NCBI GenBank assembly: GCA_017535435.1
Contig: JAFXTY010000049.1
Coordinates: 1 to 62,137 of the forward strand
Origin: Spirochaetia bacterium
GTDB lineage: Bacteria > Spirochaetota > Spirochaetia > CADAEX01
DNA: 62,137 bases
Reading direction: 5' to 3'
Part shown: positions 6,463 through 60,324 of the stretch, one piece after another
How the letters are laid out: each line of letters opens with the position of its first letter
Numbering within the stretch: the stretch's first letter is position 1
Translations under genes and position numbers: made by a program
The notes under the pieces: model-generated
What the model was told of the DNA's origin: nothing
Database searches by the model: none
Seen by the model: only the letters and a program-made list of their open reading frames with translations

Positions 6463-8939
6463 TGCAAGCACATGATCTGCCGGTCTACCGGCACAAAGAG
6501 ACAATTTTAGAGTACATAAAGAACAATAAAGTAATAGTAATAGAGAGCCCCACCGGAAGCGGAAAGACAACCCAGCTTCCTATGATCCTGTACGAGGCAG
6601 GATATGCAGACAAAGGAATCATCGGAGTGACTCAGCCCCGGCGTATCGCCACCCTTTCGGTATGCGACTACATTGCACGTCAGCTGGGCTGCGAGGTTCC
6701 AGGCACTGTGGGCTACAAGATGAGGTTTGCAGACCAGACCATATCAAGCACAAAGATCAAGATAATGACAGACGGCATACTGCTGCAGGAGATCAAGTTC
6801 GACCCCTACCTGTCCCAGTACAGCTGCATAATTGTGGACGAGGCCCACGAGCGGAGCCTCAACATAGACTTCATCCTTGGTCTCCTGAAGCGCATCTCCA
6901 ACGTCAGGGACGACTTCAAGATCATCATATCCTCGGCCACCATCAACACATCGGTGTTCTCCGAATATTTCGGAGGATGTCCTGTGGTCCACATCGACTC
7001 CAAGATGTATCCGGTGGGAGTTATCTACGACCCTGTTCCGGAGGATGCAAAGCCCGAGGAGCTTCTCCTCAAGGTGGGCGACATTGTGGAGCGGTGCATA
7101 GAAGAGGAGCGGGAGGGAGACATCCTTATATTCCTCTCGGGTGAGAAGATGATAAAGGACTGCATAACCATGCTGGATGCAAGCCCGGTGCGGGACAAGC
7201 TTATGCTCTTGCCTCTGTACGGAAGGCTATCCAAGGAGGAGCAGGAGCGGATCTTCATAGAGACACCCCCTGACAAGACCAAGGTGATAGTTGCCACCAA
7301 CATTGCCGAGACCAGCGTCACCATCGACGGAATCACCACAGTAATAGACTCAGGACTTGCCAAGATAAACACATACAATACACGGACATTCACATCCTCC
7401 CTTCTGGAGGCCCCTATATCAAAGGCTTCCTGCAACCAGAGGAAAGGAAGGGCGGGACGGACCCAGGCAGGGACCTGCTACAGGCTCTACACCAAGCAGA
7501 GCTTCGAAAGCCGTGTCATGTTCACCAAGGAGGAGATTTACCGCACCGACCTGTCGGAGGTTATCCTGCGTATGGCAGAGCTGGGGATCACAGACTTCGA
7601 GTCCTTCGACTTCATATCATCCCCGGAGAAGAACGGCATAAAGAGCGCCATCGAGACACTGGTGATGCTGGATGCCCTCAACGACAACAACACACTTACA
7701 AAGATAGGCGAGATGATGGCAGCCTACCCTCTTCTGCCACGGCTATCCAGAATGCTGGTGGAAGCTATCCTCAAGTATCCCGACGTGATCGAGGAGACTA
7801 TCATAGCTGTCACATTCCTCTCCACCAACAGCCCGTTCCTCCTGCCCCAGGGGATGGAGATGGAGGCAAGGAAGGCACATCACTCCTTCCGCAGCAAATA
7901 TGGGGACTTCGTATCCTACATCGACATTTACGACTCCTTTGTGAACGCCGAGAACAAGGAGGAGTTCTGCGACTCCAACTTCCTGGACCTGAAGGTGATG
8001 AACGAGATTGTGAGCATCAAGGAGCAGCTTGAGGACATTGTGGGGGAGCAGGGAATTCCTGTGTCAGGAGGCGGCAGCGTGGAGAACTACCTGAGCGCTG
8101 TGGCCAAGGGTCTTATCCAGTTCGTGTGTGTCCGCACCGGCAAGGGAGCCTACTCAAGCCTTACAGCAGAGCGGATCTTCATCCACCCGGGCTCTGTCAT
8201 GTTCCACGAGAATCCCGATTTCATCGTAGCCGGCGAGATAGTGCGCACCAGCCGCATGTATGCCCACTCCGTATCGCCTCTGAACACCGAGATACTCAAG
8301 AGGATATCCCCGGAGCTGGCAACAAAGCTCACCACCGCCATCCAGAAGGAGGCCAAGGGCAGGGAGAAGGCAGACAACGCTTGGCAGATCAAGATAGGCA
8401 ACCAGTTCTTCGAGCTCAAGAAAGGCAAGGGAAACAAGAATAAGACAGCCATACTCCAGTGGGAGAACCTGGCCAAGGTGATAAAGTCCGGCAGCTTTGT
8501 GGTGGATCCTCAGTCCAAGGACCTCAAGTGCATTGTCATATGGCGGGACATGGAGTTCCTTAGCAATGAGAAGCTGCGGGATGTGAAGCGCATGCTTCCA
8601 TATATAAATCCGGAGCGGAAGTTCAAGGAGGAGCTGCCCTTCATGGGGAGCATAAGCGCCAACAAGCACTTTGACCAGCTGGCCGACTGCATGGATATCC
8701 TGCTGTGGCTGTGTCCAAAGAAGAAGAACGGCAAGATACTGGGCTTCCTGACACTCCACACCGACGAGCGTGGCAACTACTGGGTAAAGGCGGACCGGAG
8801 CTTCGACAACTCTGTGCTCACCACACTGGGAAGCCTCGAGATGCTTATGGACCAGGTGCCAGACAAGGCAAGCCCCAAGAGCATAAAGAAGGTGAACTCC
8901 ACCTACCGGTTCTTCAGCGAGATATTGAAAAAGTATTAA
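6462..8939 (+). CDS. hrpA: DEAH-box ATP-dependent RNA helicase HrpA-like
   Basis: SPTGSGKTT, TQPRR, DEAHER, SAT, ATNIAETS, QRKGRAGR; TAATG overlap with hisS. Confidence 0.92.
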   Translation: MQAHDLPVYRHKETILEYIKNNKVIVIESPTGSGKTTQLPMILYEAGYADKGIIGVTQPRRIATLSVCDYIARQLGCEVPGTVGYKMRFADQTISSTKIKIMTDGILLQEIKFDPYLSQYSCIIVDEAHERSLNIDFILGLLKRISNVRDDFKIIISSATINTSVFSEYFGGCPVVHIDSKMYPVGVIYDPVPEDAKPEELLLKVGDIVERCIEEEREGDILIFLSGEKMIKDCITMLDASPVRDKLMLLPLYGRLSKEEQERIFIETPPDKTKVIVATNIAETSVTIDGITTVIDSGLAKINTYNTRTFTSSLLEAPISKASCNQRKGRAGRTQAGTCYRLYTKQSFESRVMFTKEEIYRTDLSEVILRMAELGITDFESFDFISSPEKNGIKSAIETLVMLDALNDNNTLTKIGEMMAAYPLLPRLSRMLVEAILKYPDVIEETIIAVTFLSTNSPFLLPQGMEMEARKAHHSFRSKYGDFVSYIDIYDSFVNAENKEEFCDSNFLDLKVMNEIVSIKEQLEDIVGEQGIPVSGGGSVENYLSAVAKGLIQFVCVRTGKGAYSSLTAERIFIHPGSVMFHENPDFIVAGEIVRTSRMYAHSVSPLNTEILKRISPELATKLTTAIQKEAKGREKADNAWQIKIGNQFFELKKGKGNKNKTAILQWENLAKVIKSGSFVVDPQSKDLKCIVIWRDMEFLSNEKLRDVKRMLPYINPERKFKEELPFMGSISANKHFDQLADCMDILLWLCPKKKNGKILGFLTLHTDERGNYWVKADRSFDNSVLTTLGSLEMLMDQVPDKASPKSIKKVNSTYRFFSEILKKY

Positions 8940-9331
8940 AGGACAGAAACTCCCAGAGATTTTGCCAGGGCCTTGAGCTTTTTGTCCGTGGTCAGAAGAG
9001 TAGCCCCGTTATGCCGGGCAAGCACCAGATAGAACATATCGTAGATGCTGTGTCCCAGCCGTATTCCCTCGTGCAGGGCTTCTATTGCCAGCTCGCTGGT
9101 GTCAGTGTATTCATCCACCATCTGCAGGAGATAAGCGAGAGTCTTCCTTGCATTCTCCTCATCTATCGCACCATTCCTTGCATATTTCCAAAGCACATTG
9201 GTCACCTCAGAGTCAAACAGAGAAGGTGCAATAACTTTCTCTGCGCCGGCAACCGCATTCATGAAGAGACTATATTTCGGCCCATGAAAAGCAATCTCAA
9301 AGGCAGCGCAGGTATCTAAGACATAAATCAT
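8936..9331 (-). CDS. vapC: PIN-domain VapC-family toxin
   Basis: VLDT...E...YD...LLTTDKKL acidic PIN motif; 131 aa; overlaps the upstream antitoxin. Confidence 0.88.
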   Translation of the reverse strand: MIYVLDTCAAFEIAFHGPKYSLFMNAVAGAEKVIAPSLFDSEVTNVLWKYARNGAIDEENARKTLAYLLQMVDEYTDTSELAIEALHEGIRLGHSIYDMFYLVLARHNGATLLTTDKKLKALAKSLGVSVL

Positions 9332-9600
9332 CTCAGCCTGCCTCCCTTACTGCGCCCCTCCCTGTCCTGCCGCACCAGATCAGCCGGAGAAGGAAAACGG
9401 GAAGGCAGATGAAGCTCCAGAGCATCAAGATCATCCAGCACCCTGCGGCGCCTCGCACCGTTCTTGTCATCATCTGCGTTCAGTATGGAAGAAAGCAAGA
9501 AAATAACCTGCTGGGGAACTGTGCGGTTCTGCTCCTTGGCCACCCGGGCCAGAATCTGATATGTCTCCTGGGGAAAATCCCGGACCTGCAATAATGCCAT
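9328..9600 (-). CDS. Ribbon-helix-helix (FitA/Arc-like) antitoxin
   Basis: MALLQVRDFPQETYQILARVAKEQNRTVPQQV RHH pattern and C-terminal SPADLVRQDR; AGGAG RBS; 4-bp overlap with the PIN gene. Confidence 0.8.
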   Translation of the reverse strand: MALLQVRDFPQETYQILARVAKEQNRTVPQQVIFLLSSILNADDDKNGARRRRVLDDLDALELHLPSRFPSPADLVRQDREGRSKGGRLR

Positions 9601-9609
9601 AACTGCTCC

Positions 9610-9641
9610 TTGTATGCAAAATGATATCAACTTGCATACAA
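9610..9641. promoter_or_regulatory. Palindromic operator of the vapBC module
   Basis: TTGTATGCAA-N12-TTGCATACAA perfect 10-bp inverted repeat with central TGATATCA, just upstream of the antitoxin RBS. Confidence 0.7.
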
Positions 9642-9809: not shown

Positions 9810-10061
9810 ATGCCTGTATTATCTAGGTTCTATGGAATTATAATCCGTATGTACTTCCAGCAGGCAGAGCATAATCCGCCACATATCCACGCCATCTATG
9901 ATGAGGATGTTGCTGTCATTGATATTCAGGAGAACAATGTTATTGAGGGACAGCTTCCATCCAAGGCCCTGACAATGGTGAAAGAATGGGTAGCAATCCA
10001 TAAATGTGAACTGCTGGATATATGGAACACACAGGAGTTTAAGACTCTCCCTCCGCTGTAG
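9810..10061 (+). CDS. DUF4160-family protein (putative toxin)
   Basis: MPVLSRFYGIIIRMY...EHNPPHIHA...W...PPL signature. Confidence 0.88.
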   Translation: MPVLSRFYGIIIRMYFQQAEHNPPHIHAIYDEDVAVIDIQENNVIEGQLPSKALTMVKEWVAIHKCELLDIWNTQEFKTLPPL

Positions 10062-10069
10062 AAGGAGTT

Positions 10070-10516
10070 TTGTATATGTTCCATAAAGTAAAAACAGTAA
10101 GCGCCCTACCAGATTTTCAGCTTAGCGTACAGTTCGCTGAAGGTGTGACAAAAATTTATGATATCAAACCACTGTTTAAGAAATGGAAAAACTTCGGTAT
10201 TCTGAAGCAGAAATCAGACCTATTCTACAACGTGATTGTAGATAAAGGCGGGTATGGAATCATCTGGAATGATAATCTTGACCTGTCCTGCGATGAACTT
10301 TTTGAGAACGGAAAAACAGTCAAAACTCCTTTTGATGGGCTTATAGCCTTTACAGATGCTACACAGCTTTGGGGACTGAACGAAAGTACACTTCGGAAAG
10401 CAGTTTCATACGGAAAGCTGAGAAACGGAATTGATGTCTGCAAGTATGGGAAACAATGGATTATCTCTGTAGATGCCATGAAACGTGAATACGGCCCGGC
10501 ACTTGAGCAGGTTTAA
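10070..10516 (+). CDS. DUF2442-family protein with C-terminal helix-turn-helix (putative antitoxin)
   Basis: N-terminal LSVQFAEG..KIYD...GYGIIWNDNLDL; C-terminal ATQLWGLNESTLRKA...KYGKQW HTH. Confidence 0.8.
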   Translation: MYMFHKVKTVSALPDFQLSVQFAEGVTKIYDIKPLFKKWKNFGILKQKSDLFYNVIVDKGGYGIIWNDNLDLSCDELFENGKTVKTPFDGLIAFTDATQLWGLNESTLRKAVSYGKLRNGIDVCKYGKQWIISVDAMKREYGPALEQV

Positions 10517-10525
10517 AAGTTATAA

Positions 10526-10975
10526 TCACCACTCGATATAGGGCACGCCCAGCTGTTCCTCAAGCCACAGCGCTATCTCGCCCGCTATGTTCTCCAGCTT
10601 CTGCTTCTGGCTGCTGCCGGTGATTGAGCATTCCCATACCACCCCTACCCTCCAGCCCAGGTCCATCAGGGCAGAAACATTCTCCCGGTCACGCTCTCTG
10701 TTGCGGGCAAACTTGTGGCGCCAGAAGGCTGCATGAGTGGATGGCACCCTGAACTTGGAGCAGTGCCTGTGACCATGCCAGAAGCAGCCGTTCACAAAAA
10801 CCACAGCGCGGAACTTGGGGAACACGATATCGGGACTCCCGGGTAGCTTCCTGTCATTCTTCCGGAACCGCAGACCAAGGGCAAACAGACGGCTCCGGAG
10901 CAGCACCTCGGGCTTTGAGACGCTCTTTATGCGGGACATGTTGCTGTGCCGGGCCTCGGCGGAAAGGTGATCCAT
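10526..10975 (-). CDS. vsr: Very short patch repair endonuclease
   Basis: RHSNMSRIK, LPGSPDIVF, FVNGCFWHGH, NRERD, VWEC. Confidence 0.95.
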   Translation of the reverse strand: MDHLSAEARHSNMSRIKSVSKPEVLLRSRLFALGLRFRKNDRKLPGSPDIVFPKFRAVVFVNGCFWHGHRHCSKFRVPSTHAAFWRHKFARNRERDRENVSALMDLGWRVGVVWECSITGSSQKQKLENIAGEIALWLEEQLGVPYIEW

Positions 10976-11003
10976 ACCAAAAGTATACCACAGAAATAAA
11001 ACA

Positions 11004-11032
11004 TTGACATCTCAAACCATGACAATTATATT
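11004..11032 (+). promoter_or_regulatory. Sigma70-type promoter of the Nif11-like gene
   Basis: TTGACA-N17-TATATT followed by AAGGAG RBS. Confidence 0.65.
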
Positions 11033-11052
11033 TACTATATAAGGAGATAAAT

Positions 11053-11289
11053 ATGCCAATCGATAAGACAAAAATAACAAAAGAGATGCTTGAGAAAGCA
11101 GCAAAGTGCAAGACTGCTGATGAACTGATTGCTCTGGCCAAGACCGAAGGCTTTGAGCTCACAAAAAATGAAGCTGTGGCTTATCTTGAAGAACTCCAGA
11201 ATGTGGAACTGGATGAAAAGGCCCTGGATAAGGTAGCTGGCGGTGGCTGTTATCCAGATTGTCCAAAAGATTATTGCTTTGAAAATTGA
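11053..11289 (+). CDS. Nif11-like leader peptide RiPP precursor with Cys-rich core
   Basis: KTADELIALAKTEGFELT...ELDEKALDKVAGG double-glycine leader, then core GCYPDCPKDYCFEN; strong RBS. Confidence 0.85.
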   Translation: MPIDKTKITKEMLEKAAKCKTADELIALAKTEGFELTKNEAVAYLEELQNVELDEKALDKVAGGGCYPDCPKDYCFEN

Positions 11290-11347
11290 TGCTTGACAGA
11301 TAAGCAATTAAAGTCTCTTTTACTATTTATAACCGGTTATATATTAT

Positions 11348-11374
11348 AAAGCCCCTTAATCGGGGCTTTTTTTT
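11348..11374 (+). terminator. Intrinsic terminator
   Basis: AAAGCCCC-ttaatc-GGGGCTTTTTTTT. Confidence 0.8.
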
Positions 11375-11387
11375 ATTTGCAGGGCCT

Positions 11388-11403
11388 AGTCCTACCCCTG
11401 CTA
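11388..11403. repeat. 16-bp direct repeat AGTCCTACCCCTGCTA, copy 1
   Basis: Exact second copy at 19731-19746. Confidence 0.8.
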
Positions 11404-11425
11404 AAAAATTTGAAAAAGTTTTCTA

Positions 11426-11461
11426 AAAGTCCAATCAAAATGAAAAAATTTTGAGTATATA
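11426..11461 (+). repeat. Conserved intergenic motif, copy 2
   Basis: AAAGTCCAATCAAAATGAA-aaaattttga-GTATATA, then CAGGAGG and an ATG opening only MKKIMSYM*. Confidence 0.8.
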
Positions 11462-11506
11462 CAAGTAGTCCAATTTCAGGAGGAAAAAATGAAAAAGATT
11501 ATGTCA

Positions 11507-11554
11507 TATATGTAAAGCTATATATTGACATTTGCTTTACATATACTTTACAGT
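11507..11554 (+). promoter_or_regulatory. relB promoter/operator
   Basis: Perfect 12-bp inverted repeat TATATGTAAAGC (11507) / GCTTTACATATA (11534) straddling TTGACA (11525). Confidence 0.7.
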
Positions 11555-11570
11555 TAGGAGGTAAGGAGAA

Positions 11571-11834
11571 ATGGAAATGGCACAGACTATGGTCAACTTC
11601 AGGATGGATTCTGAGGATAAACACAACATGGAGACTGTTTGCAGGGAACTGGGAATGTCAATGACTACAGCATTCACTATCTTCGCAAAGAAAGTCAGCC
11701 GCGAGAAACGTATCCCTTTTGAAATCTCTATCGATCCATTCTATTCAGAAAGCAATGTCTCTTACCTGAAGAAACTGGTATCAGATATTGATTCTGGAAA
11801 AACAAAGCTTGTTGAGCATGACCTTATTGAATAG
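11571..11834 (+). CDS. RelB/DinJ-family antitoxin (no intact toxin downstream)
   Basis: VNFRMD..K...LGMSMTTAFTIFAKKV.RE.RIPFEI..DPFYSESN. Confidence 0.9.
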   Translation: MEMAQTMVNFRMDSEDKHNMETVCRELGMSMTTAFTIFAKKVSREKRIPFEISIDPFYSESNVSYLKKLVSDIDSGKTKLVEHDLIE

Positions 11835-11887
11835 TTAAATCTTAGTTGTCAAAAATCATTATTGATACAGACTAAGCCCGCATAAAG

Positions 11888-11914
11888 GCCAGTCACACCG
11901 GTGGCTGGCTTTTT
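11888..11914 (+). terminator. Intrinsic terminator
   Basis: GCCAGTCAC-accg-GTGGCTGGC-TTTTT. Confidence 0.75.
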
Positions 11915-11973
11915 ATACCCTGTAGCATTATTTGACACACCCAGGCTGTAAAATGACCACAGGAGGACAGTAT

Positions 11974-12090
11974 ATGGAGATAAATTTCACCCTTACCCTG
12001 ACCGATAACAGCATGGTAGCCTGTGTCGTCGGTCTTTCAGTCATATTCTTAATCGTATTCGGGGTTAAAGCCCTAAGAGAAACGAAATAA
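11974..12090 (+). CDS. 38-aa single-pass membrane peptide
   Basis: AGGAGG-N7-ATG; MEINFTLTLTDNSMVACVVGLSVIFLIVFGVKALRETK; below the ORF-track cutoff. Confidence 0.55.
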   Translation: MEINFTLTLTDNSMVACVVGLSVIFLIVFGVKALRETK

Positions 12091-12174
12091 AAGTTTATCA
12101 GAAGTGAATAAATTCTTGTTTCAATGCTGATATATCAGATCAATTCCGAGACTTCGATGGAAAGTACCTTGTAG

Positions 12175-15100
12175 TTATGCTCTAGAACTTACACCTGCTC
12201 CTTTAAGTTCACTGCGTCCACTTCCACGAGGTATTACATCAATACGTACTGGTAGTTCATCTTTAAGTAAATCAACATGAGTTATAATACCAAGCATCTT
12301 GCCTCTTTCTTGTTGTAATTTCTGTAAGGAAACAACTGTTTCCTGAAGTATTTTGTTATCAAGTGTACCAAACCCCTCATCAAGAAACATTGAATCAATA
12401 CTTACATTCTCACTTGCAAGTGTTGAGATGGCTAATGCAAGAGAAAGACTTGCAAGGAACCCTTCACCGCCCGAAATATTAGTTACTGGATGCACTTCAT
12501 CACTATTATCATGGTCAATCAACTGAATCTCAAGCGAATCATTCGTAGCAACAAGTTCATATCGAGGCCATATTTCACGAAGATGAACATTAGCTATAGA
12601 AAGCAAATTGCGAAGTGTAATTACTTGAATAAATTTAACAAAAGCATCACCCGAACCATTATCTAGCCGTTTATCAGCAACAAACCACAACTGCATCTGT
12701 TCCCAACGATGTTGTTTTTCCTTAAGTTTTTCAAGCGTTTTTTGAAAAATAGCATATCTTTCACGACATTTATCATCATTTCTCTGCTGTAATAGTAATT
12801 CATTATATTCACTTGATAATTTATTTAAATGCACCCTGCCCTGTTCTAGTTCTTGTTTTGCAATATCTTCAGCATCAACAAAATCACGTTTAGCTATATG
12901 ATTTTTAAGTCTTAAATTAATATCATTAAGTGAAGTTTGAGCAGATACAAGTGAATCACTAATATTTTTTTCACGGGTTGAAAGATTTTTCCGAACCTTC
13001 TCATCAAGACGTGCTGTCAAAAATGAATTTTCATTGTCAAATCCTTTTTCCTGTAGTTTCACAACGAAATCTTTTTCCATACTTATTATTATTGGTTCTA
13101 TATCGGCTATTGCTTCCCCATACTCAATAATACTACTTTCTAACCCTCCTACAATTTTGCTCTTTTTCATTTTTATTTCAATTACTTTTTTCAAATCAAT
13201 ATCAGCATCATCACGCAACTTTGCCACTGTTTTACGCTCATTTTCAACTCTTTTATCGCCAAACAGTTCTTTTCTAATTTTGACAAAGCTATTATACTCT
13301 TGATTTTTGCTTTCATAATCTTTTTTACATTGTACAAAGTAATCTTTTTCAATTTCTAATTGATCTTGCAATAATTTACGATTCGATTCATCTGTTTGTA
13401 GAGTAACTTTAAGATCTCTTTGTTTTTCTTGCTTCTCTTTCCATTTTTTATTTTTGTTATCAAGTTCAAGTAGAAGTTTATCGATATCATCTTCTTTAAC
13501 ATTCAAAAACCATACAGAAAGATTACTTTTAAGCTCAGACAGAATATCCTTTTCATTTTCCAAAGCCATCGCAAGATTTTCCTGTATAGAATCAAATTTA
13601 TTAGAAAGAGAATATCGTTTAACATCAGTATTCTTTAATTTGTCTGCCAATTTTGAATACTGTATTTTTTTCCCTTCAAATACCTCGCTTCTTTTAGTTA
13701 AATTTGCAAGAATTGTTCTCTCTTCACCCGAAGAAACAATAATAGACCAAGGTTTTAATGATTCATTAAATGACGCAAGTATTGAACAAATTGAAGACTT
13801 CTCTTTTTCTAATTTATCTATGTCTATCTTTTTGGTTCGCTCAATCGTTTCTTTCTGGGATTCAAATTTATTAATATTATTATGAAAATTATCAATATTC
13901 TTATCTAAAGAGCGCAATTTTTCAGCAAAATCATTCAATGTGGCAACCGAGCCAGAAACTGCTTCCTTACAAGAACAGGCCGGATGTTCTTTTGATCCAC
14001 AAACAGGGCATTCCACCCCATTTACCAAACGTTTGCGTAATTCTGCGACTATTATAGGAATATCGTTTTTTATAATCTCATCTTTTTTATTTTTTAAATC
14101 ATTTAGTGACTCTGATGATTTTTTTAATTTGATTAATAATTCTTCAAGTGACTTTTCTCCATTATCAATTTCTTTCTGCAAGCGTTTCGACTCATCATTA
14201 TGCCCTTTAATACTATTTAAAAAGCCCTCTATCTTAGGCAACACACTCACCAGTTCAGCATCAATATCATAATCATTCAAATACTTTTTTATCTCATCAT
14301 ATTGCTTTCGCGTTATCTCGTTCGACTTGTCAAAATTTGACAAATCTTTTTCAGCGTTAGAAGCATCATTCTTAAGATTTTTACAACGATTTAGTAATGT
14401 ATGCCATTGGTTTACTTTAGATTTAAGAAGTGATATTATTGAATCAATTCTTGCATCAGTCTCATTTTTCACAATATATTTATCAATTTCCAAAAGTTCA
14501 GCTGAAGATTTTTCAATTCTTTTATTCAATGAAGAAATCTTTTTCATCACTTCATCGACCTTTTTTTGAGCCTTTTCCACTAAACAGTCTGAATCATCAA
14601 GCTGCTTTTTTGCACTTTTAATTTGTTCATCTAGCTGAGAAACTTTATGCCACAAAGATTCATTTTTCTCATATTCTATTTTATATTTGTCGAATTTTTC
14701 TTGTGCATGTTTTTCCTTGCGCTCAACAATTTCAAGACTATCCTTTGCTTCTTTAAGTTCATCACTCTTCTCAACAAGTTTATCCTTAAAACTCTCCAAG
14801 CTTTTACGCTTTTCTTTAAGTTCAGAATAAATAGCGTCTATTTCTTGAGCACGACGAGCTTTTTCAAGGTGTTCTTTCTCTGGTAAAAAATCTTTTTCTT
14901 CCTGTTTTGCTTTCATAAGATTTTTTTCTGCAGATTCTTTTTCTTTTTTAAACCCATGTAAGATGTCATACCATTGACAAACTGAAACTAATCGATTATT
15001 TTCCTTTTCTTGTTTTTCTTTTGCATTTTTTTGGGTACTAATATTCTCATCCAGTATTTTCCTATTTTCATCATCCATCGGGACATCATCGTCCATTTTA

Positions 15101-15717
15101 CTCATCACATTTTTCACATCATCGCAGCTCTTTGTATAAAGCATATAGACCGATTTAGCAATCTTTCTATGCAGGGAATCTCCAGTCAACTTCTCCAAAA
15201 TTTCAGCTCGTTCTTTTTCTCCACATTTAAGAAACTCATTAAAGCGACCTTGGGCAAGCATCATAGACTTAGTAAACTGTTCAAAATCCAGACCAATAAG
15301 TTTACTAATTTCTTCTTCTATAGCTGTCTGATTTGCATACGATTTAGCATCCCCCCCGCTTTCATTAGCAAGAAGCCAAGAATACCCCTGAAGGTTGCCA
15401 TGACTACAATCCCTTGCACGATGCTGACTCCAACATGCAGAATATTTTACACCATGGTTTTCAAATATAACCTTTGCCTGGCATACCCCTGTGCCACGGG
15501 TCATAATTTCATTTGAGGTCTTGTTAACTCTTTCTTGTCGAGGGGTTCTTCCATAGAGTGCAAGGCAAATTGCATCCAATATAGATGTTTTTCCAGAACC
15601 AGTTGGTCCTGAGATACAGAACATTCCTACATTTTTATAATCAGGACTTTCAAAATCAATAATCCAACTACCAGCAAGAGAATTGATATTGGTAAATTCT
15701 ACTTTTAGTATCTTCAA
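12175..15717 (-). CDS. sbcC: SbcC/Rad50-family SMC-like ATPase
   Basis: Walker A GPTGSGKT, Q-loop LAQG, long coiled coils, CPVCGS zinc hook, ISGGE signature, Walker B FLDEGFGTLD. Confidence 0.95.
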   Translation of the reverse strand: MKILKVEFTNINSLAGSWIIDFESPDYKNVGMFCISGPTGSGKTSILDAICLALYGRTPRQERVNKTSNEIMTRGTGVCQAKVIFENHGVKYSACWSQHRARDCSHGNLQGYSWLLANESGGDAKSYANQTAIEEEISKLIGLDFEQFTKSMMLAQGRFNEFLKCGEKERAEILEKLTGDSLHRKIAKSVYMLYTKSCDDVKNVMSKMDDDVPMDDENRKILDENISTQKNAKEKQEKENNRLVSVCQWYDILHGFKKEKESAEKNLMKAKQEEKDFLPEKEHLEKARRAQEIDAIYSELKEKRKSLESFKDKLVEKSDELKEAKDSLEIVERKEKHAQEKFDKYKIEYEKNESLWHKVSQLDEQIKSAKKQLDDSDCLVEKAQKKVDEVMKKISSLNKRIEKSSAELLEIDKYIVKNETDARIDSIISLLKSKVNQWHTLLNRCKNLKNDASNAEKDLSNFDKSNEITRKQYDEIKKYLNDYDIDAELVSVLPKIEGFLNSIKGHNDESKRLQKEIDNGEKSLEELLIKLKKSSESLNDLKNKKDEIIKNDIPIIVAELRKRLVNGVECPVCGSKEHPACSCKEAVSGSVATLNDFAEKLRSLDKNIDNFHNNINKFESQKETIERTKKIDIDKLEKEKSSICSILASFNESLKPWSIIVSSGEERTILANLTKRSEVFEGKKIQYSKLADKLKNTDVKRYSLSNKFDSIQENLAMALENEKDILSELKSNLSVWFLNVKEDDIDKLLLELDNKNKKWKEKQEKQRDLKVTLQTDESNRKLLQDQLEIEKDYFVQCKKDYESKNQEYNSFVKIRKELFGDKRVENERKTVAKLRDDADIDLKKVIEIKMKKSKIVGGLESSIIEYGEAIADIEPIIISMEKDFVVKLQEKGFDNENSFLTARLDEKVRKNLSTREKNISDSLVSAQTSLNDINLRLKNHIAKRDFVDAEDIAKQELEQGRVHLNKLSSEYNELLLQQRNDDKCRERYAIFQKTLEKLKEKQHRWEQMQLWFVADKRLDNGSGDAFVKFIQVITLRNLLSIANVHLREIWPRYELVATNDSLEIQLIDHDNSDEVHPVTNISGGEGFLASLSLALAISTLASENVSIDSMFLDEGFGTLDNKILQETVVSLQKLQQERGKMLGIITHVDLLKDELPVRIDVIPRGSGRSELKGAGVSSRA

Positions 15718-15728
15718 TCTAGACCTTC

Positions 15729-17058
15729 CTAGTTAGTCTCATCAGGTGTATCAGTTGCTAACGCAACAGCTTCGTCAAACATATCAAGGTAATCAGTATA
15801 CAAATTCTTTACTTCATCAGAATCTGCATCTTTTCCAACTTTCGAAGCGATTAACATTTTAAAATAATCCCTTGGTGTAAATTCTTTTGTAGTCTTTGCA
15901 AAATTTTTTTTTCAAACCATCATAATTCTGAAAAATCTCACGTGCAATTCTATGACGTTTTACCACAAAAAGTTTATCTTTTTCTTCTGCCTCAAGTTCA
16001 GCATTAAGGTTAACAATATTACCTGAAGTTAAAATGACATCGACATATGTTTCCTGTGGATTCTGCTTAAGGTCATGCTCCAAATATCGCAATTTTTGCT
16101 TAAGTGTATCTAAATCACCTTCAAATTGTTCATAACGTATTACAGTTCTTGGCACATTAATTATATGAACACTTGGTAAATTCTCATGACTTACATCTAC
16201 AACAAGTATGTTTTGTGCATGTTTGGCCTCATCAAAGCCCATCACAAATGGGGAACCTGAATAACGTACCCTTTCGTTCTTTGCTACACGTGTTGAATAA
16301 TGGATATGTCCAAGTGCAACATAGTTAAACCCTTTAGGGAAAATATCAATTGAAACATTTCCAATTGTACCCACTACATCACGAACCCCATTATCAATTG
16401 CAAAGTTTGAAAGATTACGACCTTCTAAATCAGCAGCATAAAGATGTCCTGTTGCCAGTAAAGGAATATCACGACCTGCTCGTAATTCCTCAGCCTTCGT
16501 ATACACATCTTCATAGAGACGTTTCAGCAGGTTATCATCAGAAAAATCTTTGTCACTAATGTTAGAAACACCTTCTTTTATAGGGTTTTCACCTTCATAA
16601 ACTAAATTTTTTCGTTTATAAAAATCCACCAGCTCCAAATCACGCATAAAAGGCACAGCGCAACAAATCCCTATTATTTCACCTTTATCATCTTTCAGTT
16701 CAAATACCAAATCTTCTATAGTACGATTGCATATAGACCCCACCACTTTAACATTAAGGAATTCGAGAATCTCAGCCGGGGCATCAAGTAACGCACCTGA
16801 ATCGTGGTTTCCACCTACAACAACAACATTAGTACAAGAGGTACCCTGCAATGATGCTAAAAACCTATAGTACTGGCTTTTGGCGATATTTGACGGATTT
16901 ACTACATCAAAAATATCACCAGCAATTATGAGAGCCTGCACCTCTAAATCCATAATTTGTTTTCTCAACCAGCATAAAAAAACTTCTGATTCTTTTGAAC
17001 GATCAATTTCATGCATTGAATTACCGAGATGTAAATCGGCAGTATGAATAAATTTCAT
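15729..17058 (-). CDS. sbcD: SbcD/Mre11-family nuclease; as sequenced it stops at 15859 because of a frameshift in an A9 tract
   Basis: DLHLG, GDIFD, GNHD, ALGHIH, YSGSP motifs. Removing one A at 15904-15912 extends the frame through KNFAKTTKEFTPRDYFKMLI...DETN to TAG 15731-15729, 11 nt before sbcC. Confidence 0.9.
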
Positions 17059-17065
17059 TTTAATC

Positions 17066-18463
17066 CTATTTTATTTTATAAATTTTATTAATTACATTTT
17101 TTTGGATATACTGTTTATTAATCCAGAAACACATTTTCTTTTCTTTTGTTCCCTGCGGAGAAAGAACTAATTTATAGGAATTTTGAGCATGAGGTCTTAC
17201 ATGAGATGCAGGATTATCTTTTATCTTTGAGAAGTGTTGATAATCTCCCTGTTTAACTTTTTCTTTTGTATCTGACCAGACTTTTTCGAATTGTTTATAA
17301 TCATCTTCCGGAATCTGCCAAAATACGACTCTATCTAAGTAATATTCACTTTCAGCTGAATCTTTTTTAAACAGTGCAAAAATAAACTTGCTTGTTATTG
17401 CACTATAGAAATAACTGTCTTCCCATTCTTCATCAATAATCTCAAAATAATCTATAGCCTTGAATGAAATATGTTCTGTTATTCGTCCATTGGGTTCAAC
17501 CCTGATAGTTTTCAACTGTATTCCAGAAGCATTAAACTCATAGCAATTATCTTCTTTCTTATTAAGTCCAACTATACTACGTGCCAAGTTTGCATATCGA
17601 CTTTTTTCTTTAGGATTATATTTCTTATTAAGCAACTTAGCTATTTCATCAGCAGACATTTTCATAAAAGGTTCAAATAAAGAAAAAATTTTTTGCTCAA
17701 ATTTTTCATTTTCATCCAAGAGCCGTTTTTCGGGGGAACGACCTTTTCTTTTTCGTTCCATAAGAACTTGGAAGATATGATTAATATACCCAAGCTTAAA
17801 ACAAAAAGCTCTTCCCCTAGCCTTTACAGCTGAATGAGGCTGAACCTGCATACTTGAAGCAGAGGTTGCTCCCTTTGTGCAAGCTCCAAGATAAAGGGTA
17901 TCCCCTTCTGATATTTCATGAGCTTTGCCATTGTGCACTTTTTCTACAATTGTTTCCCAATCGCACTTAATTTGATATTCATCTTCCTTCAGACATTGCC
18001 ATAAATCAACAAGTTCTATATGCAAATCATCAACAGCTAAATCAGCATTATGTTCATAAAAGACAAGGAGAATATTCTCGTTTTTGTCTTTGAAATGTGA
18101 CTGTTCAAAAACTTCTTTATCCAAATCATTATAAGTGAAATGACTCAACACTAACCTTTCTTTTACTTTTACTTCGTGGTTGTCACCAAGAGCTTTTAAT
18201 GGTGAAGTTTTCAATTCTAGTTTTGCTTTAGGAAAATCAGGCTGTGATTTATTATCATTTTCTTTCCCGAAATAAGCTGTTTCCAAGTAGTTTCCGAGAG
18301 AACCTTTATGTTTAGGGATTATTTCACTTTCAGGAATATCCTGGTCTAATCCTGCATATGTATGATGCTCAAAATTTGTCTCATGAATTGTACTTGACTC
18401 AAGACGTCTCGCAAAATCCATGATTGAATCAATATTTGAATCATCATACACAAGTTTTTTCAT
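17066..18463 (-). CDS. Sau3AI/MutH-family type II restriction endonuclease
   Basis: KGSLGNYLE, PDF...ELK catalytic motif, GKAHEISEGDTLYLGACTKG, second pseudo-domain QLKT...HVRPHA...KMCFWINK. Confidence 0.9.
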   Translation of the reverse strand: MKKLVYDDSNIDSIMDFARRLESSTIHETNFEHHTYAGLDQDIPESEIIPKHKGSLGNYLETAYFGKENDNKSQPDFPKAKLELKTSPLKALGDNHEVKVKERLVLSHFTYNDLDKEVFEQSHFKDKNENILLVFYEHNADLAVDDLHIELVDLWQCLKEDEYQIKCDWETIVEKVHNGKAHEISEGDTLYLGACTKGATSASSMQVQPHSAVKARGRAFCFKLGYINHIFQVLMERKRKGRSPEKRLLDENEKFEQKIFSLFEPFMKMSADEIAKLLNKKYNPKEKSRYANLARSIVGLNKKEDNCYEFNASGIQLKTIRVEPNGRITEHISFKAIDYFEIIDEEWEDSYFYSAITSKFIFALFKKDSAESEYYLDRVVFWQIPEDDYKQFEKVWSDTKEKVKQGDYQHFSKIKDNPASHVRPHAQNSYKLVLSPQGTKEKKMCFWINKQYIQKNVINKIYKIK

Positions 18464-18466
18464 GCA

Positions 18467-19684
18467 TTATTCCTTAGCAAAAATCTTGTTAAGCGTTTTT
18501 CCCATTCTCTCGACCATACCGACAACAAGTGCATTTCCCATGCAGAAATATCTGAACCTTTCAGGCATTCCAGTGTTTGTCCAATCATCAGGGAATCCTT
18601 GAATTCTTTCTGTTTCAACAGGAGTCAGAATACGAAGCTTTTTACTTTTTATATCTTTAACAACATGAGTACTTCTATTTAATGTTCCTTCTGATGTAAG
18701 CATCGTCCGAGCAGGGCTATCTAAGTTGTCAGGAAAAGCTATTGGCCCTTCGCTAAAAGTGTATGAAAAACCAGTCTTAGCTTTTCTTTCTATTCTTTTG
18801 GCACCTTTAAGGAAAACCCATTTTTCCATAACTTTGTCATCAATAAAATATTTTTTATCAGCACTTTTTTCCAATATGCTTCTAAGTGGTATTGGCAACT
18901 CAAGTATAGGAGATGTTTTTGCTGTAATAATCTTTCCTTTTGACATATATCCAGAATTCTCAAAAGCAAATTTGAAATTATCTGAAACATCTGAAATATC
19001 ATCAGAGTCAATCTCGCACTCTGTAAACTTTTTAATGACCTCTATCGGAAATGTTTTTGCAAAAAAACCTGCTTTCTGCATGATATCTTCAGCTGTCTTC
19101 TTTTTCTGAGTTATCCCATATTTTGCGCTGTTTTTATATGCAAAAATATAGGTTCTTCTTCTGCGCTGTTGACCACCATATTCTGCAGCATTAACAACCC
19201 GCCATTCTACTGAATAATCCAATGCATCAAGACAAGCTAAAATAATACCAAAATCACGACCTCTCTGTTTTGAAGGAGACTTTAGCAGCCTATCAACATT
19301 CTCAAGAAGCACAAAAGGTGCATTTTTAGCAATCAAGGTATCTCTAATCTGCCACCAAAGGACACCCTTTTTACCCTCAATGCCTTTTTCGCCGTAAAGA
19401 GATCTTGCTACAGAATAATCCTGGCATGGAAATCCACCCACCAAGAGATTATGATCAGGAATTGTACTTTTATCGACACAAGCAATATCAATACCAGTAT
19501 CAGAATTGACATCACCAAAATGCCTTACATAACAGTCATGAGCCCACTGCACCTTCTTCCCTGGCTCCCATTGCGAGAACCATACAGTTTTCCATTCTTT
19601 TGAGGCAGCTTCTAATCCAAGCCGGAATCCTCCGACTCCTGCAAATAACTCACATACTGTTTTTTTCAACATTTTTATATCCAT
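18467..19684 (-). CDS. dcm: DNA (cytosine-5) methyltransferase, M.Sau3AI-like
   Basis: ELFAGVGG, GGFPCQDYSVA, ENVDRLLKSP, QRRRR, ERIQGFPDDWT, MGNAL. Confidence 0.95.
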   Translation of the reverse strand: MDIKMLKKTVCELFAGVGGFRLGLEAASKEWKTVWFSQWEPGKKVQWAHDCYVRHFGDVNSDTGIDIACVDKSTIPDHNLLVGGFPCQDYSVARSLYGEKGIEGKKGVLWWQIRDTLIAKNAPFVLLENVDRLLKSPSKQRGRDFGIILACLDALDYSVEWRVVNAAEYGGQQRRRRTYIFAYKNSAKYGITQKKKTAEDIMQKAGFFAKTFPIEVIKKFTECEIDSDDISDVSDNFKFAFENSGYMSKGKIITAKTSPILELPIPLRSILEKSADKKYFIDDKVMEKWVFLKGAKRIERKAKTGFSYTFSEGPIAFPDNLDSPARTMLTSEGTLNRSTHVVKDIKSKKLRILTPVETERIQGFPDDWTNTGMPERFRYFCMGNALVVGMVERMGKTLNKIFAKE

Positions 19685-19710
19685 TTGAATTTATAACATA
19701 TTTTTTTACA

Positions 19711-19746
19711 AAAAAAAAGTAGCAAGGGTGAGTCCTACCCCTGCTA
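19711..19746 (-). terminator. Hairpin/terminator containing 16-bp repeat copy 2
   Basis: Minus strand TAGCAGGGGT-aggactc-ACCCTTGCTA then a T-tract. Confidence 0.6.
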
Positions 19747-19788
19747 TAAGTTTCTTAATCCAGACTTTAACTGCAACTGAAAAACTTC

Positions 19789-19950
19789 CTAGTCTGGGAT
19801 GATTTCATAGCCTTCCTCAATGTCATCACCGCACCATTCGCATGTCTGCCCTTCATCCTTATCAAAGCTGACTTCCAAGGTTGCAACTTTCCCTTCTCTG
19901 CTCTCAATAGCTCTCAAACAATCAAAACAAACTATCATGTTTTCTATCAT
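19789..19950 (-). CDS. 53-aa CxxC...CxxC zinc-binding microprotein
   Basis: AGAGGAG RBS; MIENMIVCFDCLRAIESREG...TCEWCGDD. Confidence 0.65.
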   Translation of the reverse strand: MIENMIVCFDCLRAIESREGKVATLEVSFDKDEGQTCEWCGDDIEEGYEIIPD

Positions 19951-19999
19951 AACAATCTCCTCTTTTCTTATATCTTCTTTCCCGATATACTTCTCCCAT

Positions 20000-20386
20000 A
20001 TGAAGACCATCCATGTAGTAGCAGCCATCATTATCAAGGACCACAAGCTCTTTGCCACCCAGCGGGGTTATGGCGAGTTCAAGGATGGCTGGGAGTTCCC
20101 AGGTGGCAAGGTGGAGCCAGGTGAGACTCCTCAGGATGCCCTTAAACGGGAGATCCGGGAAGAACTGGCCACAGAGATAGCGGTGGACAACTACATCAGT
20201 ACCATCGAATACAACTACCCCACTTTTCACCTCTCCATGGAGTGTTATGCCTGCTCAATAATTTCCGGCAGGCTGGAACTTCTGGAGCACGAGAACGCAG
20301 CCTGGCTTTCTAAGGAAACCCTGCGATCTGTCTCATGGCTCCCGGCAGATATCTGCATACTGGATAAGGTAGAAAGGTTACTTTAG
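20000..20386 (+). CDS. MutT/NUDIX (d)NTP pyrophosphohydrolase
   Basis: WEFPGGKVEPGETPQDALKREIREEL Nudix box; start MKTIHVVAAII. Confidence 0.93.
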   Translation: MKTIHVVAAIIIKDHKLFATQRGYGEFKDGWEFPGGKVEPGETPQDALKREIREELATEIAVDNYISTIEYNYPTFHLSMECYACSIISGRLELLEHENAAWLSKETLRSVSWLPADICILDKVERLL

Positions 20387-21282
20387 TCCTTATGCCGTTC
20401 ATCTATCATTTCATCGATTGCTTCATTATTCTTCCAATCCTTTGCACCTGGTTTGAGACCGCCAAGATCAAGTGGTTTCCACTTATTTAATCCTATCGCT
20501 TTATCGAACCGGTCCAGCACTTCCATCATGTCTGGCATAAGATAGTCCCGGCACTCGGCCAGCAGCTTCTTTGGCATGCCGTAGAAAGCCTCGGCAATAC
20601 CTCCGGTGATGCAGGCCTGGGTGTCGGCATCGCCGCCCAACGACACAGCAAGCCGTATGGCATCCTCGTAGTCCCTGCTGTCCAGGAAGGCCACTATTGC
20701 CTCGGGCACTGTCCCCTGGCAGGTCTCGTCGAACTCGTAGTCGGGCCTTATCTGGTCGCAGGTGCGTTCCAGGTTGTAGTCGAACTCCTTCTGGATGTAG
20801 TCCTTTATCTCATCCTTGCTCTTTCCTGTGCGGGCCAGGAATATAGCGGCCGCTGTGGCATCTGCACCGTCAATTCCGAAGGGATGGTTATGGGTCACCT
20901 CCGCAGTCCAACGGGCCACCTTCCTGGTTGTCTCCAGAGTATCGTAAAGCCAGCCTGCCGCCGACACCCGCATGGCGGAACCGTTGCCATAGCTGCCGTA
21001 AGGCTCGGTCATATCGGAGAAAAGCCAGTGATGGAACCGCCCGCCGTACCCTGCGAATGGATACTTTGCTCCCCACTTCTTGAAGCTCTTGATCAGGGCC
21101 TTCTTCACCTCTTCCTCCCCGGGATTCTTCCCGAACATCATAAGGGCTTCAGCCACAGCTATGGTCATGACCGAGTCGTCGGTGAACATGGAATCGTCGG
21201 TTAAAAGAGGGAAATCTGTTGTCTCTATGGGGTCAAACTCGTAGGGAGATCCTACGATGTCGCCTAAAATTGCTCCGTACAT
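20383..21282 (-). CDS. ADP-ribosylglycohydrolase family protein
   Basis: GAILGDIVGS, FTDDSVMT, SYGNGSAMR, TH, GGDADT. Confidence 0.93.
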   Translation of the reverse strand: MYGAILGDIVGSPYEFDPIETTDFPLLTDDSMFTDDSVMTIAVAEALMMFGKNPGEEEVKKALIKSFKKWGAKYPFAGYGGRFHHWLFSDMTEPYGSYGNGSAMRVSAAGWLYDTLETTRKVARWTAEVTHNHPFGIDGADATAAAIFLARTGKSKDEIKDYIQKEFDYNLERTCDQIRPDYEFDETCQGTVPEAIVAFLDSRDYEDAIRLAVSLGGDADTQACITGGIAEAFYGMPKKLLAECRDYLMPDMMEVLDRFDKAIGLNKWKPLDLGGLKPGAKDWKNNEAIDEMIDERHKD

Positions 21283-57824: not shown

Positions 57825-58335
57825 GGGTCACCTCCGAAATCTTGATGATAAGCTTTATGAAAGGCACCTTCATAAGGAACTGATAAGCCTTGCTCCGTAC
57901 AAAGTACTGATACAGTGTGTTGCGCCATACCCGGATGAATATGCGGGCCAGGATGTAGAGGGGTATGTAGAGGAGGATGCCCCAGGCCAGGCCGCCCATG
58001 ACTATGGTGTTGTTGAAGCGGGTGAATGCAACAAATGGGGTGTCCAGCAGCTTGGCAAAGGTGGGTGTCAGAGCCGGATGAGTCAGGATAGCATAGCCGG
58101 TGGTGTCAAACAGCGGGTCTACCAGCGGGATGAAGATAGAGCCCAGGATGATGCTGAGGAACAGAGTTCCCCTGTTGATTCTCAAAAAGAATGTGAATAT
58201 GAAAAGGAATATCCAGAGCAGATTCCCTTTGGGAACAAATGCCAAGAGCATTCCCAGCGAAAAGGCGTGTGCCAGCTCCCCCGGCGCCCTATTGGCGTTC
58301 AGGGACTTGAACAACTGCTTGAAATAGTTTACCAC
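57817..58335 (-). CDS. TIGR03546-like membrane protein
   Basis: LNAN..PGELA, FTRFNNTIVMG. Confidence 0.8.
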   Translation of the reverse strand: MVNYFKQLFKSLNANRAPGELAHAFSLGMLLAFVPKGNLLWIFLFIFTFFLRINRGTLFLSIILGSIFIPLVDPLFDTTGYAILTHPALTPTFAKLLDTPFVAFTRFNNTIVMGGLAWGILLYIPLYILARIFIRVWRNTLYQYFVRSKAYQFLMKVPFIKLIIKISEVTHE

Positions 58336-58377
58336 CTGTGCAGCCTCCTAATAAAATTATATTATAACAGTATTATC

Positions 58378-58527
58378 TATAAATCAAGGCACAGATAAGG
58401 GTACGGCCTCGGTAGATGGGTACCCCGTAGACAAGTTCATGTCACACTGGACTTGCTTCAGTGCGACGAACTTGTTGCTACGGAGCCCAATACCTCGCCG
58501 CACGCCTTTCTGTGCTTTGATTTTATA
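58378..58527. repeat. 150-nt imperfect palindrome (long hairpin)
   Basis: Nested arms AAATCAAGGCACAGA/TCTGTGCTTTGATTT, CCGTAG/CTACGG, ACAAGTTC/GAACTTGT, GTCACACTG/CAGTGCGAC. Confidence 0.8.
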
Positions 58528-58599
58528 CTATCCTATTTAATTCTATTGCTTGCAAAGCAGGTGCAAACTATATTCTTTTTTTTTGAAGTTTTTTTTCAA

Positions 58600-58635
58600 A
58601 AAGTCAAATCAAAATGAAATTTTATTGTGTATATA
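58600..58635 (+). repeat. Conserved intergenic motif, copy 3
   Basis: AAAGTCAAATCAAAATGAA-attttattgt-GTATATA, then CAGGAG and the ATG of the 199-aa gene. Confidence 0.8.
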
Positions 58636-58651
58636 AGGCAGGAGACTGTTT

Positions 58652-59251: not shown

Positions 59252-59281
59252 AAAATACAACGCTCTGATTGATTTGTCAAT

Positions 59282-59310
59282 AAAAAACCAGCCGCTGACT
59301 GCGACCGGTT
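59282..59310 (-). terminator. Intrinsic terminator of the ankyrin-FGE gene
   Basis: AACCGGTCGC-agtca-GCGGCTGGTT-TTTT. Confidence 0.7.
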
Positions 59311-59316
59311 GAAAAG

Positions 59317-60303: not shown

Positions 60304-60324
60304 ATTTTTAGTTTTCCTTAATAA

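Follow-up and report, generated by a model that had tools for sequence, protein, structure and literature searches.

The stretch of DNA analysed here, referred to below as the window, is the 62,137-nt contig JAFXTY010000049.1 of a Spirochaetia bacterium (GenBank assembly GCA_017535435.1), which carries on its minus strand, at positions 12175-19684, a block of four co-oriented long open reading frames (ORFs). In the direction of reading, these code for a C5 cytosine DNA methyltransferase (MTase), a Sau3AI-family restriction endonuclease (REase), the Mre11-like nuclease SbcD and the Rad50-like ATPase SbcC (Table 1). Judged by sequence, each of the two modules, the restriction-modification (R-M) pair and the SbcCD pair, is an ordinary member of a known family, and the whole is very probably one acquired cassette, a chimera of R-M genes from the spirochaete pool with an SbcCD of the Fibrobacter lineage.

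Layout and gene products of the cassette

The four genes are closely packed, with gaps of 3 nt between MTase and REase, 7 nt between REase and sbcD and, once a frameshift in sbcD is corrected, 11 nt between sbcD and sbcC. Shine-Dalgarno-like AGGA or AAGGA motifs precede each downstream start, in or over the end of the preceding gene, and at the REase/sbcD junction, where only those 7 nt separate stop from start, the ribosome-binding site of sbcD overlaps the REase stop codon. Because of this tight packing, and because consensus scans of the region for promoter-like and terminator-like sites gave no excess over shuffled sequence, the natural reading is that the four genes are almost certainly read as one transcript starting from the MTase gene. 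The composition sets the region apart as well: G+C stays at 0.30-0.39 across 11-20 kb, against 0.46-0.48 in the nearest 1-kb intervals on the left and 0.54 on the right, and the G+C content at third codon positions (GC3) is 0.276, 0.238, 0.242 and 0.227 in the four cassette genes versus 0.63-0.75 in neighbouring host genes. Pfam matches on the neighbours comprise a PIN toxin, a DUF4160/DUF2442 pair, Vsr, RelB, a NUDIX protein and an ADP-ribosylglycohydrolase. An earlier reading made from the letters of the window (the sequence-only reading) had described the four co-oriented genes with these gaps, the frameshift in sbcD, an AT-rich cassette between GC-richer flanks, and toxin-antitoxin modules, Vsr, NUDIX and ADP-ribosylglycohydrolase genes as neighbours, all of which is borne out by the family models, the coordinates, the composition (GC3 of 0.23-0.28) and the Pfam matches.

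The first gene product matches PF00145 with 195.3 bits over profile positions 3-323 of 324, scores 214.8 bits with TIGR00675 (cut-off 100.65) and 545 bits with the PADLOC model MTase_II, and shows the catalytic motifs FAGVG, PCQ, ENV and QRR at residues 14, 86, 128 and 173. The second passes the curated Sau3AI-family model NF040973 (405.4 bits, cut-off 300) and matches PF02976 (MutH) in two stretches, with the residues of the MutH-type catalytic D...E.K motif (D76, E83 and K85) unchanged throughout the 25 rows of alignment A2. Among solved structures it is closest to R.Sau3AI, 4PXG (165.5 bits), and the structures 2REU and 7XM0 of the Sau3AI C-terminal domain match its C-terminal part. Going by family membership, the target of the REase is likely GATC, which is the most depleted four-nucleotide palindrome in the cassette (7 observed vs 22.1 expected, a ratio of 0.32). 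Such avoidance was considered as proof of a shared history of the four genes and rejected, since the Fibrobacter sbcDC genes (10 vs 25.2) and Treponema flanks are likewise depleted.

SbcD reaches 140 bits with TIGR00619 (cut-off 77.65), has the motifs DLH, GDIFD, GNHD, GHL and GHIH all present, and keeps D8, H10, D48, N84, H85, H205, H251 and H253 invariant in alignment A3. With the Escherichia coli-type equivalog NF008206 it falls short at 231.4 bits against a cut-off of 450; on these scores the protein is an SbcD, but one outside the enterobacterial equivalog group. Its best solved relative is E. coli SbcD (6S6V_A), aligned over residues 1-422, that is, nearly full length. The frameshift present in the window consists of one extra base in a run of nine T (plus strand, 15904-15912), and in the alignment the tail lost by it pairs with C-terminal sequence of E. 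coli SbcD, as far as residue 389, which we take to be the part that binds SbcC.

In this regard, Logan contigs of four public runs, one of which (X1) is possibly the source of the window, were aligned to positions 10500-20500, and all four lack one letter at 15904 (depths 9.85/9.85, 5.6/5.6, 5.6/5.6 and 4/4), with the proviso that two of the runs may represent a single data set, their tables being identical. The protein collection holds the intact 442-aa SbcD twice, as P0361, otherwise identical to the window protein, and as the slightly different P0241, together with a frameshifted pair from another assembly. Given the contigs of the four runs and these two intact proteins, sbcD is probably intact in nature and the break in the window a one-base homopolymer assembly error. 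Phase variation at the homopolymer was rejected as the main explanation, the contigs of all four runs having the intact length, though contigs hide minority variants. P0241 occurs with P0365 on a 3492-nt NCBI contig of a second strain, which includes about 1 kb upstream of sbcD; no REase fragment from that contig is found in the REase cluster of the window, which has a single member.

The last gene product, SbcC, scores above cut-off with PF13476 (89.7 bits), PF13558 (32.6) and PF13555 (28.9), and contains a Walker A motif (GPTGSGKT), a CPVC hook (C570-C573), the signature SGGE, a Walker B motif (DEGFG) and an H-loop, these motifs and the zinc hook being invariant columns in alignment A1. The best solved match is E. 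coli SbcC (6S6V_C), with 302 bits over the N-terminal head. The scores with the curated full-length models stay below cut-off (251.8 vs 478.5 bits for TIGR00618, 384.3 vs 750 for NF007600) because the coiled coil is divergent. With the E. coli SbcCD complex (6S6V) the window pair thus shares the sbcD-sbcC order, the phosphoesterase motifs, Walker A and B, the signature, the H-loop and the CxxC hook. It differs in the length of SbcC (1180 aa vs 1048 in E. coli), in falling below both equivalog cut-offs (231 vs 450 for SbcD and 384 vs 750 for SbcC), and in its location on an acquired AT-rich cassette behind R-M genes instead of in a stand-alone repair operon.

Table 1. Features of the cassette, of the insert that holds it and of the surrounding slot (window positions unless a sister locus is named)
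Feature	Position	Strand	Remarks
sbcC, Rad50-like ATPase	12175..15717	-	1180 aa, TTG start; PF13476, PF13558, PF13555
sbcD, Mre11-like nuclease	15729..17058 (as called 15859..17058)	-	intact form 442 aa; TIGR00619
Sau3AI-family type II REase	17066..18463	-	465 aa; NF040973, PF02976, 4PXG
C5 cytosine DNA MTase, first operon gene	18467..19684	-	405 aa; PF00145, TIGR00675, PADLOC MTase_II
Left direct repeat, attL-like	11379..11406	+	repeat family D9; copy of tRNA-Met(CAT) 3' end
Right direct repeat, attR-like	19722..19749	+	repeat family D9; just upstream of MTase start
RelB-type antitoxin, left module of insert	11571..11834	+	PF04221, 41 bits
Conserved left flank of cargo slot	11837..12102	.	92% identical to G002 and G005
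Resident Vsr, context outside insert	10526..10975	-	PF03852, 96.7 bits; GC3 0.75
Resident NUDIX, right flank of slot, context	20003..20386	+	PF00293, PF14815; PADLOC PDC-S07, 165 bits
Slot helicase in sister genomes	L190 2963-5011 (G005); L191 3170-5218 (G008); L192 4146-6206 (G003)

The insertion site and the origin of the two modules

The cassette is part of an 8.3-kb insert that encodes no integrase and lies between two tRNA-Met-derived direct repeats. These repeats, 28 nt long, are 82% identical to each other and 8343 nt apart from start to start, and their 17-nt core is present at two places in the window, where 0.09 occurrences would be expected. They match the 3' end of a real tRNA-Met(CAT) gene situated on a separate contig (G000 C16; L193 1443-1515). 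The right repeat, which read on the minus strand forms a hairpin followed by a T-run (a terminator-like site at 19746-19720), aligns with single copies in the sister genomes G007, G002 and G003.

A comparison with these sister genomes delimits the acquired part. The closest of them, G007, whose HrpA is 98-99% identical, has on one contig the left flank, one copy of the repeat (L199, G007:C125, 830-856) and then the NUDIX gene, and by this arrangement is an empty site. In G005, G008 and G003 the slot is occupied by a 682-686-aa Schlafen-group-3/DUF2075 helicase and a 66-69-aa ORF, the helicase of G005 matching the PADLOC candidate PDC-S41 with 894 bits, and in G002 by 2.3 kb of different DNA, with the RelB module and positions 11837-12093 common to the window. 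Homology of the left flank stops at 12093 (G002) or 12102 (G005), 73-82 nt past the sbcC stop codon, so that the segment that varies with respect to the sister genomes, about 12102-19720, consists of the four genes and almost nothing more. Seen across these genomes, the slot is a cargo-swapping defence hot spot. The arrival of the four genes as one unit, as advanced in the sequence-only reading, is well supported by the limits of this variable segment, the att-like repeats, the empty site of G007 and the shared GC3.

The same comparisons bear on the possibility that the adjacency is a mis-joined contig, or that sbcDC was inserted later beside a resident R-M pair. The two modules do differ in phylogenetic affinity and the window assembly does have a homopolymer error in sbcD, but run X1 has an independent 8012-nt Logan contig that spans 12073-20085, and with it all four genes, without any differing letter, and further runs contain pieces of this sequence. 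Moreover, no sister genome has just one of the modules, and both the 7-nt junction and the evenness of GC3 suggest that the operon had been put together before it arrived, all of which makes either artefact or double insertion very improbable. The 8012-nt contig breaks off on both sides at the borders of the variable segment, a pattern compatible with alternative paths in the sample. Near-identical pieces are found in runs from three studies, the runs with the sequence being labelled gut metagenomes; in one RNA run the share of sampled words present was only 0.05.

Regarding the source of the SbcCD module, the SbcD and SbcC of the cassette are the only copies in the host genome. Among the 20 genomes of the host's family, the SbcD model scores above cut-off in three (G000, G001 and G011), and in none of the close-clade members G002, G003, G005, G007 and G008. 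The nearest relatives of the two window proteins are Fibrobacter proteins (56-63% identity for SbcD, 41-44% for SbcC), and SbcC proteins from the family and class of the host reach just 26-32% identity to that of the window. In a maximum-likelihood tree of 36 SbcD rows, where long outgroup branches make the deeper nodes unsafe, the window SbcD and P0241 fall inside a 22-row Fibrobacter-type clade (support 99/96) and, within it, in a 19-row subclade (98/88) that excludes a three-row group with a named Fibrobacter sp. UWH9 protein; the stem of the pair is 0.80 long, versus 0.2-0.4 for its neighbours. In the closest Fibrobacter-like locus, L093, sbcDC has a G+C content of about 47-48% and adjoins rmuC, recC and a recB-like helicase gene, which by its gene content is a housekeeping repair setting. 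The chromosomal sbcDC of Fibrobacter (P0249 and P0048 of F. succinogenes) thus resembles that of the window as its nearest relative, in equal protein lengths and in a clade that includes the window SbcD, and differs from it in a G+C of 47-48% beside rmuC/recBC-type genes, as against the 33-35%, the long branch and the junction to R-M genes found in the window. A second, housekeeping sbcCD, for which the sequence-only reading had advised a search, was not found in the host genome, and the tree places the window copy with Fibrobacter. This sole copy is not the vertically inherited one: its SbcD nests among Fibrobacter proteins, and the SbcD model passes its cut-off in only three of the 20 family genomes. 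A more distant member of the genus, G001, has an sbcD-sbcC pair of its own (L239 10549-14723, G001:C3), of host-like G+C and near TatD/HAD homologues.

On the other hand, the affinities of the R-M module are spirochaetal. Short contigs carry relatives of the REase with 78-87% identity, Treponema genomes of rumen and gut carry relatives with 60-66%, and other Spirochaetales have relatives as well; those in genome contigs were recovered by a scan with alignment A2, a scan with the single REase protein giving none. A search of the other 19 genomes in the host's order did not recover the REase.

The flanks of the slot have a history of their own. Vsr is present in G008, G003 and G002, all without this R-M pair, and as a short remnant in G005 and G007, and the NUDIX gene is conserved in G005, G008, G003, G002 and G007; both, with host-like G+C, flank the slot in G002, G003 and G008. 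Vsr was accordingly rejected as a member of the cassette, given its host-like GC3 and its presence in sisters lacking the R-M pair. Compared with their counterparts at the Treponema Sau3AI-type locus L018, the window NUDIX has 54% and the window Vsr 46% identity, and the slot looks like an old 5-methylcytosine (m5C) R-M locus where the accessory genes stayed and the cargo turned over. Left of the cargo, positions 11403-11834 are 90.5% identical to G002, where an 86-aa ORF that by eye looks like a RelE/YoeB-type toxin directly follows the antitoxin (L197, about 14290-14530) and is not found in the window. About 240 nt are deleted from the window at the site of this ORF, and its RelB antitoxin is without a toxin partner. 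Between hrpA and Vsr lie a PIN-domain toxin with a small upstream ORF (8936-9630) and a DUF4160/DUF2442-HTH pair (9810-10516; HTH, helix-turn-helix), which are like further toxin-antitoxin modules at the edge of the hot spot. A second AT-rich stretch of the window, at 58001-61000 (G+C 0.33-0.40), may be another acquired island.

Recurrence of the association and comparison with defence systems

The linkage of these R-M genes to sbcDC was searched for from both sides. On the R-M side, the best 80 Sau3AI-family loci from species-representative genomes had a homologue of the MTase adjoining the REase in 75 cases and, in the DNA available, up to 10 kb on each side, SbcC or SbcD in none (tblastn, E value at most 1e-5); six viral Sau3AI-type loci had no SbcCD either. 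On the SbcCD side, SbcC adjoins SbcD in 71 of 80 metagenome SbcD loci, and no homologue of this MTase, REase or Vsr occurs at any of the 80. R-M genes were likewise absent from the 108 nearest-neighbour ORFs of sbcD(C) operons, taken from the 66 of these loci with a neighbour within 2.5 kb and compared with PADLOC at an E value of at most 1e-10. Seven of these neighbours have PADLOC matches, namely RmuC, a UvrD-like helicase, mad2, mad3 twice, MzaA and a DruE-like fragment. The DruE ORF, located beside sbcD on a short metagenome contig (L142 73-1188), matches Druantia DruE with 154 bits, and no other of the 108 neighbours matches a named defence system as clearly.

A collection of 5.8 billion proteins contains no SbcD with 63-96% identity to that of the window, despite the REase relatives at 78-87%; two of the latter, P0124 and P0127, sit on contigs of 7.5 kb and 16 kb, and close R-M relatives seem to be without this sbcDC. 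A scan of viral contigs with the SbcD alignment gave no relative, SbcD matches on plasmids and phages are all at most 36% identical, and R-M genes beside sbcDC are absent at the two plasmid loci inspected. No published R-M operon containing sbcCD was found in the literature searched, many subscription papers being outside its coverage. The sequence-only reading had put forward a candidate four-gene defence system. A recurrent system of this kind finds no support in these counts (0/80, 0/80, 0/108 and 0/6), the synteny being unique as far as searched, an outcome that the sequence-only reading had itself named as refuting. From these surveys the combination has the look of a single joining of cargo genes and not of a new immune system.

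Two kinds of R-M locus serve for comparison. With the Sau3AI R-M system (4PXG and its C5 MTase) the cassette has in common the family model, the MutH-like stretches, the D/E/K triad and the adjoining MTase, and it departs from it in having sbcD and sbcC after the REase in the same operon, as none of the 80 family loci does. At the Treponema locus L018, the MTase and REase genes are followed 6 nt on by NUDIX, with Vsr about 2 kb beyond, so that there too an accessory DNA-metabolism gene is coupled behind the REase. Unlike in m5C modules of this type, the accessory of the window is a two-subunit double-strand-break nuclease, found in no other locus examined.

A dedicated four-gene defence system would go further: the R-M pair would be the partner of SbcCD, itself an obligate sensor or effector comparable to SMC-like proteins in Lamassu, Wadjet or RloC. 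The cassette does sit in a defence hot spot, with a Rad50-like coiled-coil ATPase in common with Lamassu LmuB, Wadjet JetC and RloC, and its SbcC has partial PADLOC matches to LmuB (67.9 bits), JetC, DndD and PbeC. RloC presumably carries a fused anticodon nuclease, of which there is none in the window SbcC. All these matches are confined to the generic ATPase head or the coiled coil: membership in Lamassu failed, as the match to LmuB (PDLC03859) covers only the N-terminal 483 residues and none of the four proteins matches LmuA or LmuC, and membership in Wadjet failed too, as the JetC matches are weak (coiled coil and head, E values of 5.8e-07 and worse) and no other Jet protein, whether JetA, JetB or JetD, is found. 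Instead, the partner in the cassette is a true Mre11-type nuclease, with no extra effector domain, and the length and architecture of SbcC are the same as in the housekeeping SbcC of Fibrobacter. In a review (PMC13685816) Lamassu is described as related to Mre11-Rad50, and there and in the Millman preprint Rad50-like proteins are described as sensors of ends or hairpins in Lamassu. With the gene association failing to recur, a dedicated system is nevertheless quite improbable. The PADLOC check proposed in the sequence-only reading gave MTase_II (545 bits) for the MTase and the partial LmuB and JetC matches for SbcC.

Independent modules or a functional link

On balance the evidence leans towards a one-off chimeric operon, acquired horizontally, in which two ordinary and independent modules were fused on a mobile element. 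According to this proposal, an R-M module with the C5 MTase first and the REase second would have come from the spirochaete gene pool, and an SbcD-SbcC module would have been taken from a chromosome of the Fibrobacter lineage and then have drifted to low G+C. The R-M pair would restrict unmethylated incoming DNA in the usual way, and SbcCD would do its usual work of cutting hairpins, free ends and protein-blocked ends, thereby supplying this activity to a lineage otherwise without it. The modules would be mutually independent, the R-M pair helping as an addictive element to retain the whole cassette. That the two modules act independently is, taken by itself, an evenly balanced question, and a functional link between R-M and SbcCD is a possibility.

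Several observations weigh against such independence and would fit functional integration better. They include the 7-nt REase-sbcD junction with its overlapping ribosome-binding site, the near-equal GC3 of all four genes, the fact that sbcDC, on a long branch and in AT-rich surroundings foreign to it, has retained every catalytic motif, and the position of the cassette in a slot that is a defence hot spot (PDC-S41, 894 bits, in sisters). In the same direction points the R-M family itself, where the REase is followed, at most 60 nt on, by a co-oriented and tightly coupled gene in 28 of 78 loci. Of the 27 such genes scanned, 12 have no Pfam family, three are the MTase itself, two Vsr and two NUDIX, the remainder being an HNH nuclease, a RecD2-like helicase, DpnD, an AAA_5 ATPase, a BglII-like endonuclease, a transposase HTH protein, GidA and a dehydrogenase, one each; some of these third genes (Vsr, NUDIX, HNH, RecD2-like helicase) have repair-type domains. 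Moreover, the host has no RecB or AddA above the family cut-off, and therefore an end-processing nuclease could matter for restriction. By analogy with these accessory genes, SbcCD could be a cost-mitigating or end-processing accessory of the R-M pair. A 2014-aa open frame of the host (G000:C31:7597-10647) has sub-threshold RecB/AddA matches and may be its sole helicase-nuclease for DNA-end processing; as it reaches 141.6 bits with the RecB model, the absence of RecBCD/AddAB is not established.

These points lend themselves to a reading where the modules cooperate without being a dedicated system, SbcCD acting on the breaks made by a GATC-cutting REase, which we regard as the main alternative, though a less likely one. 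On the side of the invader, SbcCD might perhaps trim the 4-nt cohesive ends or remove enzyme-bound ends and so block re-ligation; on the side of the host, with the same reserve, it might start recombinational repair of self-restriction, so that a frequent cutter could settle in a lineage without SbcCD, in the way that Vsr and NUDIX genes accompany m5C systems. A gene spacing tight enough for translational coupling, the lack of SbcD above cut-off in the close clade and of RecB/AddA above cut-off in the host, and the repair-type company kept by R-M relatives, with Vsr in 22 of 80 Sau3AI-family loci and NUDIX 6 nt after the REase in two, all speak for cooperation, and PMC13685816 lists recombination and bacteriophage elimination among the roles of bacterial SbcCD, while PMC4437897 cites work in which SbcCD cuts near protein-bound DNA ends. 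Against it stand the linkage that does not recur (0/80, 0/80 and 0/108) and the REase relatives at 78-87% identity without a matching close SbcD. A variant in which SbcCD removes trapped C5-methyltransferase complexes is weakened by the E. coli sbcD mutants, which according to PMC4437897 behave like wild type.

A more specific form of the idea, namely that an R-M cassette brought its own SbcCD, taken from a Fibrobacter chromosome, and kept it intact during a long residence on an AT-rich mobile element for processing the GATC breaks of its REase, seems rather unlikely, and the same doubt attaches to the wider proposal that mobile SbcCD pairs are a recurrent and overlooked accessory cargo of R-M and defence islands. 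If SbcCD did process GATC breaks, restriction would become irreversible in invaders and self-inflicted breaks of the host repairable, and a 4-bp cutter could establish itself without SbcCD or RecBCD already in place.

Even if SbcCD is cargo only, the locus would be a clean example of the capture of a housekeeping repair operon across phyla in the gut community, with Fibrobacter as the source and a spirochaete as the recipient. Its integration hot spot is precisely delimited by an empty site, by att repeats and by the alternative cargo, and a mis-assembled sbcD is now corrected. If, on the other hand, SbcCD serves the R-M pair, a double-strand-break nuclease would join the short list of R-M-carried repair functions such as Vsr, and the cassette would offer a test of whether post-cut processing, and not cutting alone, sets the efficacy or the cost of restriction in a host without RecBCD.

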